Source: Eledone cirrhosa
Lineage: Eukaryota
Length of the DNA stretch: 64,000 nucleotides
Assembly (NCBI GenBank): GCA_964016885.1
Contig: OZ024740.1
Location: 68,138,001 to 68,202,000 of the forward strand
Reading direction: 5' to 3'
In this document: in pieces, positions 2,283 through 64,000 of the stretch
Layout: every line of letters begins with the position of its first letter
Position numbering within the stretch: position 1 is the first letter of the stretch
Made by a program: the position numbers and the translations under genes
Notes under the pieces: model-generated
Databases searched by the model: none
What the model was told of the DNA's origin: nothing
The model's input: only the letters and a program-made list of their open reading frames with translations

Positions 2283-3028
2283 AACATTCGCTCTACATGG
2301 TTGAATACAATAAAAGTAATCTTAATTTTTCGAATATTAACAATAACATTCGATTCGTTTCCAATTATGCAAACAAGCTTCATTTTTATAGCCATGTCAG
2401 TAGAATGAACAACTTCATTCTTGCTCTTGTATTGGCATGTAAACAGAACTGCAGACACTAATGTTTCTGGGTATCACCCTTCACCAGTACAGCTGACTGT
2501 TCACCTGCCAATCTATCAGAGCTAGTGAAAATAAATGCTATTTTCTAATATATACAGTGACTGATCTGCCTGATTTGCATATTAACAAACTGGCTGATCA
2601 ATCTGATCTGCATATTAGCAGAGCCACAAATCAGGCAGATTTGCATATCAACAGATCGGGTAGTCAGTTTCCTGTATACGAGCGGTAAATTGCCGGCTTT
2701 GCCACATTTAAATTTAAAAACAAAATGTTCGTTCTACACGGCTTTCATGCCAAGACAAGAAGTTATTCATTCCACTGACATGGCTTTAGAAATGAGGCTT
2801 GTTTGCATAATTGCAAACGAATCGAATGTTATTATTAATATTTGAAAAACTCAGATTAAATGTATTGTATTCAGCCATATAGAGCAGCATTTGTTTTTTT
2901 TATATTTGAATGTGGCAAAGCAGGCCATTTATCGTTCGTATACAGGAAACGGACTGGCCAGTCTGCTGATATGCAAATCTGGCTGATCAGTGGATCTGCT
3001 AATATGCAGATCTGACTGATCAGCCAGT
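2283..3028. mobile_element. Inverted pair of a ~440-bp HHR-bearing unit, bordered by (TA)n on the left and TA/CA-rich repeats on the right
   Basis: 2745-3025 is the reverse complement of 2555-2745 plus 2283-2440; the left arm is slightly more than one permuted unit. Confidence 0.75.
2449..2492 (-). ncRNA. Hammerhead-like fold with one core substitution
   Basis: Minus strand: ctgta-CTGGTGA-a-gggt-gat-accc-a-GAAA-cattagtg-TC-tgcag; stems I-III all pair; GUC triplet. Confidence 0.7.
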
Positions 3029-3408
3029 GTGTTTGTAAATGTGTGCACACGCGCACACATATACAAACACACAAGCACACACACATAAATATAAACACGC
3101 ACATTATATAAATAACACACACACATGTATATATATATATATGTATATATATATTTATATATATATATATATATATGTGTGTGTGTGTATGTGCGTGTGC
3201 GCGTGAATATATATATATATATATATAGTAATAATAGTAGTAGTAATAATAATAGTAATAATAATAAATGTGAAGACTAAAATCCAATGAGGGCTCGATA
3301 AGGATAACTATATATCAAATGTATAAGAACCCTAGAGAAGCGATTCTTTGCTTAAACTTTAATGTTATTTTAATATATATATAGAGAGAGATATATAGAT
3401 ATATATAT

Positions 3409-3548
3409 AAAATCGATGTCTAGCAAATAGAGAAAAAGTTTTAAAATACATTTTAAAAAATTCGCTGTACTTACTGTGCCTAGTAAATAAAGCGAATTTT
3501 TAAAAATTGTTTTTAAAACTTTTTCTCTATTTGCTGGACCTCGATTTC
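3409..3548. repeat. Short imperfect palindrome next to (TA)n
   Basis: agcaaatagagaaaaagttttaaaa / ttttaaaactttttctctatttgct arms; related piece at ~49053-49096. Confidence 0.75.
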
Positions 3549-3769
3549 ATATGTTCTGGCTTGTTAATTTATTAACCCTCCATAGAAGCACATTGACATA
3601 CGGTTGGATAATACTTGTTTCCCTATATGTATTTTTTACCCGTAGGAATTCATTCTTTATTATATATATATATATATATATATATATATATATATATATA
3701 TATATAAATATATATATATACACACGCATATCTATACACACACATGCAGAATCATATGCATAAACACAC

Positions 3770-4820
3770 TCACTCAATTCCCCTCTCTCACTAAGCCACC
3801 AAATTCTCTCCCTCTCAATATATTCCAATACATACCTCACCCACTCTCACCCTCTTAAAACCCCCTATATCACTAGGCCAATAAACTCTAAGTCCTCTCT
3901 GTAACTCACTACATATCTCACACTCTCTCTTAATTCCCCCTCTCTCACTAAACTAACAAATTCTCTCACCCTCTCTATATTCCACTACATAGATCATTAT
4001 ATTTCACTCTCACAATAGCCTCTATCTAACTAAACCACCAAATTCTCTCTCGCTTTCTATATCCCATTACATACCTCACTCACTCTCACAATCCGCCCTA
4101 TCTCACTAGACCACTAAATTCTCTCCCCCTCTCTATATCCCACTCCATAACTCACTCTACGTCACAATTTCCTCTCTCTCACTAAACTAACAATCTCACT
4201 CCCCCTCACTCTATACCACTCAAGCTTTCACATTTCCCACTCTCTCACTAGACCAGCAATCAATCTCCCCCTCTTTATATCCTACTACTTACCTCACTCT
4301 CTCTCACAATTCCACCTCCCTCACTCAACCACCAAATTATCTTCCCCTCTGTGTATACAACTACATACCTTACTCTCTCGCACTGTCTTAATTTCCCCTA
4401 TTTCACTAAAACAACAAACTTTCCCCCTCACTCTATACAACTGCAAACGTCACACTCACTCAAAAATCTACCTCACTCACTAGACCACCAAATTCTCTCC
4501 CCGCTTTATTTTACAGTATATACCTTATTCACTTTCACTCTCTTAATTCTTCCTCTCTCACTAAACCAACAAATTCTCTCCCGCTCTCTATATTACACAG
4601 CATATCTCATTTTCTCCCTCCCCCCTCTCACTAAAACAACAAATTCTCCCCCGCTCTCTATATTCGACTACATACCTCATTATCTCTCACTCTCACAATA
4701 CCCTCTCACTAAGCCAACAAATTATCCCCGCTCTCTATATCCCACTACTTACCTCACTCTGTCTCACAATTCCCCCAGTCATTAGACCCCCAAATTCTCT
4801 TTTCCTCTCTATATCCCACG
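3770..4820. repeat. Degenerate C/A/T-rich minisatellite, unit ~70-75 bp
   Basis: Recurring ctctcacta(a/g)accaccaaattctctccc..ctctatatcccactacatacctcact. Confidence 0.85.
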
Positions 4821-61390: not shown

Positions 61391-62860
61391 CTGCTATATT
61401 TCCTTATCTTTTTTGTTTAGGTTCATTTTGATTACCATCATCTTTATTATTATTGGTTTTCTGCGGCTTTTCGATTCTAGTTTCCATGGTCTTTTGGCTA
61501 CCATACCCTGTCTATCGTCTTGGGCATTATTATAGTTTCACTACTAACACCTTATGGGTTTATATCTTATTAAATACTTTGGTTGGTGTCTCATTCAACT
61601 AATGTACCTCCTCCTCTACACACTTAATATCCGCCCCTTCTATTATACTATATATAAATTTCACCTTTATGCTCCTTTTATGATATTATATAATATATGA
61701 ATTTACTTTTATGCTCCTTCCTATCCTCCATAACCTCTCCTCTTTCTGTTCCCATTGGTCTACCATAGTTCTATTTAGAGTCCTTTTATTTGATAACGTT
61801 ATTCGACTGAACGAAGCATATTTTTCTCTATTATTGATAATTTTTTTGAGATATCTTAAACTAATTTTGAAGTGACTAAATATGTATTTTAAATACTTTT
61901 AATATTAATTAATTTAAAAAGGTTTTCTAGTCAAATCTCTGGTCTACATTTCTATCTTTTTTCTTTTACTTAACCGCTTGTGACACCTAAGTAAATATAC
62001 TTGTTTTTGTTTTTCGATCTTCGGTTTATTTTATTTATTATTTTACTACCACACGCTGTTTGTCTGACCATGTAGTTTCATTAATATATGTCTGTATGTC
62101 AACCACGTAAATATATTTTGTAATATTTTGTGATATTTTGGTAATATTTATGCCAATGTATAATGACTTGACCTCCGTGTATTTGTTACAATGGTATAGA
62201 TATTTTTTCAACACAATTTTTTCAACACTATTTAGTTCTATATGATTTTTTCTTACCCTGTGTAAAACTTTATACTATTTGTTAACCTTGAATTATATGT
62301 ATGATGTAATTTTGTATATCTTTGATGCCAATATATTATAATATTGTTATTATAATGTTATTATAATGTTTCTATATTGTTTATGCACACTGACAGGGAA
62401 TTATATATTATATTTTATTTTTATTTTATCTTTATTCTTATTTTTATCTTTATTATATTATACTGTAAACAATATATATATATATATTTAAATACTTAAT
62501 AAGTGTTAGTTTGTATTTGTACTAATGTGTATATCTATTGAGATATATATATATATACATATATTAAGCTTTTTATTATTACCATCTATTATATTATATT
62601 ATATTCTATATCGTACTGTAATTCTCGCATTATACTACCATTTGTGTTTCAAATTTTTACATTATATAATATTTGGAATGTGGGTTCTACATGTTAATCA
62701 CTTCCTTGCTATTTGGTCCATATCTATGTTTGTAACTGCTCACTCTTAATCTTAGCCAACTTTTCCTTAATATCTTTCCTAAGCTTCAATAGATGTATAC
62801 TCCATATTCTTCTGAGTGTTTGGCTTGTATTGGCCGATAGTGCTTCTTGTAGCTTTACTT

Positions 62861-62898
62861 GCCCTGATGAGTCCTTAATAGGACGAAAGATTGTTGGC
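62861..62898 (+). ncRNA. Minimal type I hammerhead in the PLE 3' terminal repeat
   Basis: gcc-CTGATGA-gtcc-ttaata-ggac-GAAA-gattg-TT-ggc; stem III imperfect. Confidence 0.82.
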
Positions 62899-63061
62899 TA
62901 ATAAAGACTTTTGATGTATTGAAGGATTCTTTGGTTTATTTTTTTATAATTCTTCGGCTATATCTTATACTGTCATTTCTATAATATGAAGAGGGTGTTT
63001 AACTCCAACACACTCTAGTATTTTAATTCTTATATATATATATATATATATATATATATAT

Positions 63062-63641
63062 GTTTTCGAGGCTTTTGATATGGAATCGTGTGTCAAAAGA
63101 AATATTTTTATACTTGGGGAGGGTCATATTGTTGTAATAATTGTTACTACTTTTGGCACAAGGCCAGCAATTACACAGTGCATTACTGGTACTTTATTTT
63201 ATCGACCCCGTAAGGATGAAAGGCAAAGTTAACCTCGGCAGAATTTGAACTCAGAATGGCATAATATTGCCAGAAATAATAACAGAACACACTCACTGTT
63301 TGGTTGGTTTCCACTTCTGTATCTTTTATATCTCCAAAGTTAATTCATTTTGTCTTCAATGTTTAACATTGACCGATCAACGGGGTCAAAAATATATATA
63401 TAAACACATATATATATATAGTCTTACAAAGTTCTTTCGTTGCACATATGCAATATCATCAATGGTACTATTATGTTCCTCCTGTTGTATTGTATATCTA
63501 CGGCATTTTTATTTGAGGACCAAATGAATTAACCGTGGAGATATAAAATATACAGAAGTGAAAACCAACCAAACAGTGAGTGTGTCTGTTATTATTTCTG
63601 GCAATATTATTACAACAATATGACCCTCCCCAAGTATAACA
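63062..63641. mobile_element. Family H inverted composite with a nested SINE
   Basis: 63110-63350 (minus the SINE) is inverted at ~63512-63640; homologous to 43110-43443. Confidence 0.8.
63137..63260 (-). mobile_element. 5'-truncated SINE inserted in family H
   Basis: Interrupts gttgtaataat|attgccag, which is uninterrupted in the opposite arm; short ataat duplication. Confidence 0.85.
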
Positions 63642-64000
63642 CTATATATATATATATATATATATATATATATATATATATATATATATATATATATATA
63701 TATATATATATATATATACGATATTAATAAATGGAAACTATATTTAAAATCCATATTTATTTCATTATATTTGCTTCTTGTATCCCAACAATTTAAATAA
63801 AACTTTTGCATATATATATATATATATATATACATATATATATATTTATATATATATATATATATATATATATATATATATATATATATATATATATATA
63901 TATATATATATATATATATACATTTATATACATATGCATACTTACGTGCATGTATGCATAAATACATAAATTCATACATATCGTGTATGTATATGTATAT

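Follow-up and report, generated by a model that had tools for sequence, protein, structure and literature searches.

The question raised by this locus is how ends of Penelope-like elements (PLEs), the sister group of telomerase, come to lie in inverted pairs inside (TA)n tracts. The window, meaning the whole stretch analysed, comprises 64,000 nt of the forward strand of Eledone cirrhosa contig OZ024740.1 (GCA_964016885.1), positions 68,138,001-68,202,000. Twenty-five inverted pairs of PLE arms were catalogued by hand (Table 1), 21 through self-BLAST of the window after masking of simple repeats and four (3268, 8336, 35249 and 63719) through family homology. Inverted arms were present at all 15 loci named in the original prediction; the coordinate 59035 was wrong, the inverted repeat being at 59439-59597 with a tail reaching about 59375.

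Table 1. Inverted pairs of PLE arms and PLE coding remnants in the window. E1 and E2, short and tailed 3' ends; plus and minus, sense strand of an arm.
Feature	Positions	Strand	Family	Description
Pair 2283	2283..3035		F2	left arm of roughly one tandem unit (2283-2743), ending at TA; right arm 2744-3035; orientation marker absent
Pair 3268	3255..3374		F3	non-overlapping arms: tail-only minus 3255-3337, E1 plus 3336-3374; element-coordinate gap 3 nt
Pair 3405	3410..3660		F4	left E1 arm, right tailed arm, loop 6 nt; weak orientation
Pair 8336	8336..8577		F7	tail-only minus 8336-8457, E1 plus 8463-8577; element-coordinate overlap 10 nt, nearly non-overlapping
Pair 9528	9529..10209		F1	E1 at the end of the minus arm, whose start matches the unit phase of the plus-arm end (E2); hammerhead core 9839 (minus); sister arms
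Pair 15159	15146..15378		F6	tailed minus arm; E1 plus arm extends further 5'; right side without TA tract
Pair 17744	17744..18952			90-nt inverted copy of ORF-internal 5' end at 17744-17833, flank non-TA; right part a 5'-truncated PLE, ORF to ~18670, pLTR to 18952
Pair 19846	19843..22655		F10	E1 minus arm 19843-20166, then 5'-truncated PLE ORF, 3'UTR, tailed pLTR; sister arms
Pair 22693	22692..24207		F11	arms share one end site; 84% identity, many gaps; hammerhead-like core in each arm
Pair 24476	24477..25763		F12	minus tandem of 2.2 x 517-nt units up to E2; 164-nt plus arm up to E1
Pair 26048	26050..28878		F3	E1 minus arm 26050-26173, then 5'-truncated PLE ORF (RT to endonuclease), 3'UTR, tailed pLTR
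Pair 29421	29370..29536		F13	loop 5 nt, directly upstream of hammerhead core; left outer end without homology definition
Pair 29565	29554..29714		F6	tailed minus arm, E1 plus arm; centre near-symmetric
Pair 31786	31784..31905		F3	ends E1+9 and E1; loop 8 nt within stem II of degenerate hammerhead
Pair 35249	35249..35698		F1	E1 minus arm 23 nt, tailed plus arm 427 nt
Pair 43110	43110..43440		F6	tailed minus 43110-43205; longer E1 plus 43203-43440; hammerhead at 43212
Pair 43987	43987..44700		F3	tailed minus arm, E1 plus arm; junction complex
Pair 45495	45491..46352		F1	minus arm stops at internal site, plus arm at E1; additional fragment in centre; hammerhead cores 45600 (minus), 46095 (plus)
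Pair 47664	47586..47772		F14	left arm tailed, right arm E1, loop 6 nt
Pair 47830	47831..48363		F7	tailed minus arm with hammerhead core 48075, E1 plus arm; 98% identity between arms
Pair 50094	50088..50667		F15	arms 272 nt, loop 11 nt; orientation marker absent
Pair 50897	50814..51565		F16	left tailed, right E1; weak orientation
Pair 59035	59375..59593		F9	tailed minus arm, E1 plus arm; loop 7 nt directly upstream of hammerhead cores
Pair 63061	63061..63641		F6	tailed minus arm split by SINE; E1 plus arm
Pair 63719	63719..63809		F10	non-overlapping arms: E1 minus arm and final 37 nt of tail on plus; element-coordinate gap 62 nt
Hydra-clade PLE ORF remnant	17843..18670	+		thumb, CxCX5C linker, endonuclease
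Hydra-clade PLE ORF remnant	20159..21113	+		CxCX5C, GIY-YIG-like, CxxC, CxH
Hydra-clade PLE ORF remnant	26171..27633	+		RT motifs to CxH; interrupted by stops and frameshifts
Short PLE endonuclease fragment	42891..43108	+
Unpaired 5'-truncated Hydra-clade PLE	59597..63030	+		flanked by two TA tracts; ORF remnant to ~61390, hammerhead 62864

The pairs of head-to-head PLE ends in TA repeats are real. Pairs were oriented from a hammerhead core, an ORF or similarity to a copy of known orientation; the 20 orientable pairs of the 25 all run minus-then-plus, as the original prediction had noted, and for those found by BLAST the count is 16/16 (2^-16). Partial or weak cores orient three pairs weakly (3405, 47664 and 50897), and two carry no marker (2283 and 50094). 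As a mark of the sense strand, the core was found downstream of 32 ORF ends in relatives in the sense orientation 26 times and antisense once. The statement that 3' ends face TA-rich flanks was also borne out: of 45 outer ends defined by homology, 38 lay no more than 10 nt from a (TA) run of at least 8 nt, against 2.4% of random positions. TA lies on both flanks in 17 of the 25 pairs and at the inner junction in one. Since TA also adjoins unpaired copies at the 5' side, it is the target and not a tail. SINEs in the window, used as a control, abut TA with none of 13 3' ends; their close opposite-strand neighbours are tail-to-tail twice and head-to-head once. Tail-to-tail neighbours of the same PLE family occur too, as separate insertions with TA tracts in between (e.g., 28878 then 31784). 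Element 3' ends border 9 of 50 long TA tracts on both sides, which fits the suggestion that such tracts are split repeatedly, and the arms do differ in length, endpoint and often sequence (84-98% identity).

Judged by their protein motifs, the ORF remnants belong to the Hydra clade of PLEs, which is known to target (TA)n. A tblastn search with 6 of 26 homologues gave RT followed by a C-terminal endonuclease in one ORF, collinear over residues ~217-708. The CxCX5C linker was present in four of five remnants (18225, 20694, 27196 and 60945), and the CxxC and CxH of the endonuclease C-terminus were both correctly placed in three of five. Pfam matched GIY-YIG in one of seven pieces, below the cut-off (E = 0.0017), and in none in a second search. 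All copies in the window are 5'-truncated; the N-terminal RW and DKT motifs were found in homologues. The Neptune clade was rejected, as it needs a CX2-5CxxC linker and a CCHH motif and the linker of the remnants is CxCX5C. At least 14 families are represented, with tandem hammerhead-bearing units in F1 and F12, and the ORF-less families F1, F6 and F11 may belong to other clades. Loose hammerhead cores numbered 21, several of them degenerate, against 0-6 in shuffles, and stem II is predicted to fold at 62864 and 43212. The Rfam matches listed for the window were all under the gathering score.

Every family shows two fixed 3' ends, a short one (E1) and a tailed one (E2), and the same ones recur across independent insertions of F1, F3, F6, F7 and F10. 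In public runs, E1 in (TA)n also ends other genomic copies of F14, F3, F1 and F10, while longer TA runs inside the element, reaching up to 9 nt, do not serve as ends. An unpaired F1 array (46490-47110) ends at E1 with a 12-nt target duplication. Among the 18 pairs in multi-copy families, 15 combine E1 with E2, none E2 with E2, one is near E1+E1 (31784) and two use an internal site; under independent end choice at even odds, 15/16 E1+E2 has P = 2.6e-4. The tail, about 45-117 nt long, is on one side only in 15 of these 18.

A short motif lies next to these ends. Among 35 distinct 5'UTRs of Hydra relatives, 23 contained two GCTC...GAGC motifs, 10 contained one and two none, the spacing of the two being 55-83 nt; two motifs occurred in a mean of 0.002 shuffled UTRs and in 0/169 ORF windows. 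In relatives with a TA-abutting end plus a second copy, GCTC was found 6-13 nt beyond the end in 8/8, and the 14 hammerhead-to-TA stretches all held zero or one motif, never two. In window families with both motif halves, these are complementary in 7/8 (GCTC/GAGC, ACTC/GAGT and GTTC/GAAC versions), and the F12 tandem unit has one motif after E1 and a second about 9 nt beyond E2. The complete motif after E1 is missing in 5 of 13 window families (F1, F2, F4, F6 and F15); since F1 and F6 nevertheless pair E1 with E2, the motif is not the sole determinant. The 4-bp stem is nearly invariant in relatives (52/53) and is therefore uninformative on base pairing, and GCTC...GAGC could act as a sequence or DNA-level signal rather than as the predicted hairpin.

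The relationship between the two arms carries most of the argument. At five pairs each arm contains sequence absent from the other, with no overlap or a 10-nt overlap at 3268, 8336 and 63719, where the short arm of 63719 scores above 2000/2000 shuffles, and with private sequence in each arm at 15159 and 43110. Since each arm has sequence of its own, neither is a fold-back copy of the other, and two priming events are required; these five pairs support the earlier proposal that each target end primes separately and that the cDNAs are joined at their 5'-truncated ends. Where the comparison had power, the arms were sisters: 0 differences at 9528 against 6-27 over 86-147 columns for most comparators, 0 against 6 at 47830, and 9 against 22-26 at 19846. 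It was uninformative in most families, and at 43110, 59035 and 29565 one arm was nearer to another locus in some comparisons. No mixed-family pair was found among the 25 and no host-RNA arm was seen. Separate RNAs, as the original prediction had it, did not hold as a rule, the arms being of the same family, sisters where this could be judged, and complementary rather than independent in their ends. Its reading of sister arms as fold-back was too narrow, since sisters are also expected from two primers on one RNA. At 3268, 8336, 9528 and 24476 (4/25 pairs), the long arm halts within ~25 nt of the position of the other primer; this sign of a single RNA is only suggestive, as a rough, uncomputed estimate of about two expected among 25 puts the four not clearly above chance.

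Head-to-head PLE insertions in (TA)n probably result from two target-primed reverse-transcription events, one per cut strand and likely on one RNA. Most likely, the endonuclease of the element cuts both (TA)n strands, with one priming site for each resulting end. The GIY-YIG endonuclease would nick both strands of (TA)n, a sequence that is its own reverse complement; one 3'-OH would prime immediately 5' of hairpin 1 (E1) and the second immediately 5' of hairpin 2 (E2). Their template would probably be a single RNA bound by a protein dimer. The cDNA from E2 would stop at or before the E1 primer, leaving a tail-only arm, or would displace the E1 cDNA and copy the same stretch, leaving overlapping sister arms, and the two cDNA 3' ends would be joined via microhomology or an internal hairpin. 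A minority of pairs, such as 17744, would come from fold-back. Several observations weigh against this proposal. Near-symmetric palindromes are most simply explained by fold-back, and here need a shared stop or hairpin annealing; the inverted copy at 17744 is ORF-internal with a non-TA flank; later deletion in one arm could yield non-overlapping pairs; overlapping arms from one RNA require strand displacement, a putative step; the arms at 22693 are divergent with like ends; and the in vitro work comes from another clade. A more specific version is somewhat doubtful and is offered tentatively, namely that programmed twin priming is the normal route of Hydra-clade PLEs, with two conserved GCUC...GAGC hairpins ~65 nt apart on one RNA, a dimer subunit at each, and both (TA)n strands cut and extended at once.

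The most probable alternative, though unlikely as the general route, is single priming at E2, after which the cDNA would self-prime by fold-back and copy itself, and the endonuclease would trim or join it at E1. It also predicts E1+E2 and sister arms, and resembles the self-priming and "EN-mediated resolution" ideas in the available portions of PMC3846280 and PMC8557442, respectively. Near-symmetric palindromes, with inner ends at most 12 nt apart, are in excess (7/19 pairs, permutation mean 2.4, P = 0.0008, with hand-entered extents), and five are centred in or beside a hammerhead. One F1 array occupies precisely the E1 position of an F10 copy, which makes E1 a possible cut site. The best case is 17744, and fold-back accounts for at least one pair. 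However, it requires later deletions to give 3268, 8336, 63719, 15159 and 43110, unpaired copies end at E1, the motif follows both E1 and E2, and in vitro both tail boundaries are RT start sites (PMC11167929, in part). Double cutting followed by priming on two separate RNAs, one per dimer subunit and usually from the same source locus, is improbable. Overlapping arms, the majority, would then need no strand displacement, a dimer is predicted in the part of PMC11167929 compared, and 22693, with ends alike and 84% identity, is the best candidate for two different RNAs; this account alone leaves unexplained E1+E2 in 15/18, E2+E2 never, the absence of mixed families and tail-only arms halting where E1 lies.

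The original prediction had instead proposed a break-patching system; in its strongest form, PLE reverse transcriptase would repair pre-existing (TA)n breaks without the element's endonuclease. The association with TA is strong, target duplications are unreadable within (TA)n, and PLEs without endonuclease prime from exposed ends (PMC3846280, in part). This reading is nevertheless very improbable, given the endonuclease motifs in the ORF remnants, the fixed element ends, the lack of mixed-family and host-RNA arms, SINE ends away from TA, a (TA)n preference that follows a Zn-finger-like linker across the clade (PMC8557442, in part) and a PLE protein that by itself cuts and extends both strands in vitro (PMC11167929, in part). 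That the pairs are fold-back chimeras of the assembly is hardly credible: the best 16 of ~105,000 contig/read pieces spanned no palindrome centre and such structures are described as hampering assemblies (PMC8557442, in part), but the arms differ by 2-16% with indels and have a one-sided tail, a 186-nt contig, possibly from the source sample, links unique flank to the 45491 arm, and the same layout is found in L007 703-898 of another organism and in the literature.

If true, programmed twin priming on one RNA would directly yield two PLE hallmarks that have long lacked an explanation, the inverted pLTR and the tail on one side, whose origin is called undefined in the available text of PMC8557442. 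The window supplies a concrete model, together with a short cis-motif open to relocation, removal or exchange in an existing in vitro assay. It also shows an annotation hazard, since such pairs resemble MITEs or miRNA hairpins.

The head-to-head layout itself is already known and ordinary for PLEs. In the portions of the literature compared, two fixed ends per family with E1+E2 pairing, arms that each have sequence of their own and twin 5'UTR motifs were not found. The Hydra clade of Craig et al. 2021 (PMC8557442) shares the CxCX5C linker, CxxC and CxH, hammerheads and (TA)n targets, with published tails of 30-40 nt against ~45-117 nt here. Its inverted 5' copy and one-sided tail are drawn there as general PLE features, the tail being attributed to endonuclease resolution, and the part compared holds no mention of twin 5'UTR hairpins or E1+E2 pairing; the inverted repeat that the original prediction gave for PLE 5' ends was recovered as an inverted 5'-truncated copy at 19846, at 26048 and in L007. 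Non-LTR retrozymes (PMC4209133) share tandem hammerhead-bearing units with F1 and F12, and minimal hammerheads on opposite strands 100-700 nt apart are a further common feature (bioRxiv 10.64898/2026.07.22.740005); neither source, as far as compared, gives an insertion mechanism for an inverted arm. Adineta vaga Penelope (PMC3846280, in part) is likewise usually head-to-head, with junction palindromes, an optional tail on one inverted pLTR and AT-rich targets; self-priming was inferred there, whereas the non-overlapping arms here require two priming events. The purified Poseidon PLE protein of Anolis carolinensis (PMC11167929), also with AT-rich targets, cuts and extends both strands, is a predicted dimer and starts reverse transcription at two sites, one at each boundary of the tail. 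The sections compared leave later steps open and do not link the two start sites to two arms; those sites lie within the ORF of another clade at one AC-rich stem-loop, whereas here they would lie in the 5'UTR upstream of two motifs. A further likeness is L1 twin priming (bioRxiv 10.1101/2024.08.27.596794, in part), in which both target nicks prime on one RNA, microcomplementarity joins the cDNA ends and an inverted piece adjoins a direct piece; in L1 the second primer uses a spurious internal site and the arms rarely overlap, whereas here the second site is fixed and overlap is usual.

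The window is AT-rich, animal-type DNA full of microsatellites. A catalogue compiled by hand (21 pairs from masked self-BLAST and 4 from family alignments) comprises 25 inverted pairs of Penelope-like elements (PLEs) from 14 families (F numbers) in the 64 kb, each named by its start position. Self-BLAST, with simple repeats masked and unmasked, returned inverted arms at 15/15 loci of the original prediction. The layout it had proposed, a minus-strand left arm followed by a plus-strand right arm, was found in all 20 orientable pairs, and its TA-rich flanks were recovered as a (TA) run within 10 nt of 38 of the 45 homology-defined outer ends, against 2.4% of random positions. 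TA was present on both flanks in 17/25 pairs and at the inner junction in only 1/25. As a control, none of the 13 SINE copies in the window, presumably of a type resembling the octopus SINE, had its 3' end at TA, and their orientation was mixed. Three SINE pairs and the inverted pair 41210/42281 were left out of the catalogue as not PLE. The hammerhead core, located by a custom sequence pattern, is a valid strand marker: after 32 ORF ends of relatives, 26 cores were sense and 1 antisense. The Rfam scan of the window gave 194 matches, and the 150 listed were all under the gathering score, with no hammerhead family among them.

The five decayed ORF remnants match RT and endonuclease proteins of about 700 aa and contain the CxCX5C, CxxC and CxH motifs that mark the Hydra clade, almost all families of which insert into (TA)n (PMC8557442). 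A Neptune label was dropped, since the Hydra-clade definition (PMC8557442) and the linker motifs of the remnants fit Hydra instead. The feature is real, and its elements and layout are known for Hydra-clade PLEs; the ORF-less families F1, F6 and F11 may belong to other PLE clades. The Pfam search of the PLE proteins gave no family name, no solved structure was found among their relatives, and homodimer prediction for residues 1-250 of the homologous protein P0003 scored 0.11.

In all multi-copy families the arms stop either at a short fixed 3' end (E1) or at the end of a tail (E2), 45-117 nt beyond, where E2 of F4 rests on one copy only and E2 of F9 varies by ~16 nt. The E1 sites recur in public runs, where further genomic copies stop there at (TA)n: contigs show it for F14 (60 and 57) and F3 (87), and reads in the thousands for F1 and F10. 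Runs X1-X3 are a single sample, which may be the source sample, and X2 and X6 were left out; read depth was not taken as copy number, and read joints to the opposite strand were disregarded because one part of an ordinary copy can align to one arm and another part to the other. The view that E1 is just the best TA microhomology was dismissed, since TA runs longer than those at the ends occur inside the arms and yet stay unused. Among the 18 pairs of families with at least two insertions, 15 combine E1 with E2 and none E2 with E2; the others are a near E1+E1 pair (31786) and two pairs with an internal site (45495, 17744). Under independent, even end choice, 15/16 E1+E2 has P=2.6e-4.

Folding of the 60 nt past E1 gave a small stem. 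When motif halves were searched without demanding complementarity, 7/8 window families with both halves had them complementary, in three versions; a half was missing in 5/13 window families examined, and F1 and F6 form E1+E2 pairs without the motif. Relatives were taken from metagenome contigs (77 loci, the best 77 of 436) and provided 47 5'UTR windows, 35 of them distinct, with two GCTC...GAGC motifs in 23, one in 10 and none in 2. Twin motifs are spaced 55-83 nt apart, with loops of 8-31 nt, and two motifs almost never occurred in shuffles or ORF windows. GCTC lies 6-13 nt past the TA-abutting end in 8/8 loci that have such an end and a second copy; the stretches from hammerhead to TA hold no motif in 10 rows, one in 4 rows and never two. 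In the F12 tandem, the motif follows E2 and likewise E1. Motif 1 therefore probably begins just downstream of E1, and motif 2 just downstream of E2. That the motif halves pair is only predicted, because the stem is almost invariant in relatives and compensatory versions are confined to the window. In three relatives, a (TA)n tract upstream of the ORF lies inside the 5'UTR right before the hairpin motif (L004 at ~460, L018 at ~980, L023 at ~3000), and thus at the E1 or E2 site.

Coordinates of individual pairs, remnants and other repeats in the window
Position	Feature	Observation
17843-18670, 20159-21113, 26171-27633, 42891-43108, 59597-~61390	PLE ORF remnants (17843-61390)	5/5 on plus strand; chance 1 in 16
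60157-60621	Insert interrupting PLE ORF	~460 nt, Asn/Arg-rich, seemingly in-frame, with 117-nt direct repeat; ~15 residues here in homologues; reminiscent of N-rich inserts in Adineta Penelope ORFs (PMC3846280)
16070-16220, 36784-37075	Hammerhead-like single fragments	Between microsatellites, without inverted partner
3268	Pair	Tail-only left arm, E1-ending right arm; 3 nt apart in element coordinates
8336	Pair	Arms overlap 10 nt in element coordinates
63719	Pair	Arms 62 nt apart in element coordinates
15159, 43110	Pairs	E1 arm extends further 5' than tailed arm
3405, 29421, 31786, 47664, 59035	Near-symmetric pairs	Centres in hammerhead-like stem II or <=10 nt upstream of core
46490-47110	F1 tandem array	Unpaired, ends at E1, flanked by 12-nt target duplication
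46390-47290	Insertion of F1 array	Exactly at E1 of an F10 copy; other F10 copies lack it in thousands of reads
52347-52826	Head-to-head SINE pair	Located in (TAG)n-type repeats, spacing 101 nt; identity 86%, as usual between copies
63131-63261	Truncated SINE	Breaks tailed arm of 63063 pair
41210-42281	~120-nt inverted repeat	Around a SINE, microsatellites facing inward; possibly a DNA-transposon-type end
3764-4819, 7856-8209, 12209-12986	Degenerate tandem repeats	C/T-rich, period ~60-100 nt

In five pairs (3268, 8336, 63719, 15159 and 43110) neither arm can have been copied from the other, because each holds sequence that the other lacks, which points to two priming events; a later deletion within an arm would lift this exclusion. 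A candidate fourth non-overlapping pair, 29108, was weak (left arm equalled by 6/2000 shuffles) and was not counted. Fold-back would instead make the near-symmetric palindromes (7/19 pairs, P=0.0008 when extents entered by hand were permuted) and pair 17744 products of self-priming. Five of these palindromes centre in or beside the hammerhead. In 17744 the inverted arm repeats a 5' end that lies inside the ORF, and its flank is not TA; fold-back is the best reading of this pair. The palindromes do not discriminate, since fold-back and hairpin-mediated annealing of two like cDNAs give the same junction. Hammerhead cleavage ends were ruled out as the symmetric centres: with the cut placed by type I topology, the GAAA core upstream of it is inside the arms. 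In relatives L032, L064 and L070 the contig opens with an inverted copy from within the ORF that resembles 17744; either fold-back or an assembly end may account for it. An assembly artefact is an unlikely source of the pairs, because the arms are 84-98% identical with indels, the tails are one-sided and L007, from another organism, has the same layout; among the matches listed from the public runs, none spanned a palindrome centre.

The reading that we favour, with some reserve, is endonuclease-driven priming from both target strands: the element endonuclease would open the target, and both strands would prime at two fixed RNA sites, probably of one RNA. Separate RNAs for the two arms had been proposed originally. 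Both arms always belong to the same family (mixed pairs, 0/25), and clear sister arms were found in 9528, 47830 and 19846. Star-like relationships in most of the other families lead to ties in the sister test, and for 43110, 59035 and 29565 another locus was favoured over the partner arm in some comparisons. A single RNA would explain the E1+E2 pairing with no further assumption, but it requires strand displacement where the arms overlap. Pair 22693, with like ends and arms 84% identical, is the best candidate for two RNAs. The idea of a break-patching system was not sustained, as endonuclease motifs, fixed ends, same-family arms and the double cut known in vitro make pre-existing breaks unnecessary. 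TA is the target, since unpaired copies also carry TA on their 5' side. The proposed splitting of TA tracts was compared with their flanks: among 50 merged tracts of at least 24 nt, an element 3' end lies on both sides of 9, which fits repeated splitting, on one side of 19 and on neither side of 22.

The architecture itself is already known, because its parts are in print: an inverted 5'-truncated copy with a tail on one end is drawn as typical of PLEs (PMC8557442), head-to-head is the most frequent arrangement, with self-priming inferred (PMC3846280), and opposite-strand hammerheads close together have been noted (PMC4209133). In the literature covered, to which older reviews, Repbase notes and figures may add, twin priming is not applied to PLEs and the twin hairpins of Hydra elements are not described; 'hairpin' and 'stem-loop' are absent from the text supplement of PMC8557442. 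The value lies in a testable model and a motif, not in the layout. The long arm halts within ~25 nt of the other primer's start in 3268, 8336, 9528 and 24476, as in L1 twin priming (bioRxiv 10.1101/2024.08.27.596794), and such near-abutting pairs (4/25) are not clearly above chance. Two priming events also agree with the purified PLE protein that cut and extended both strands in vitro, starting at two sites bounding the tail (PMC11167929).
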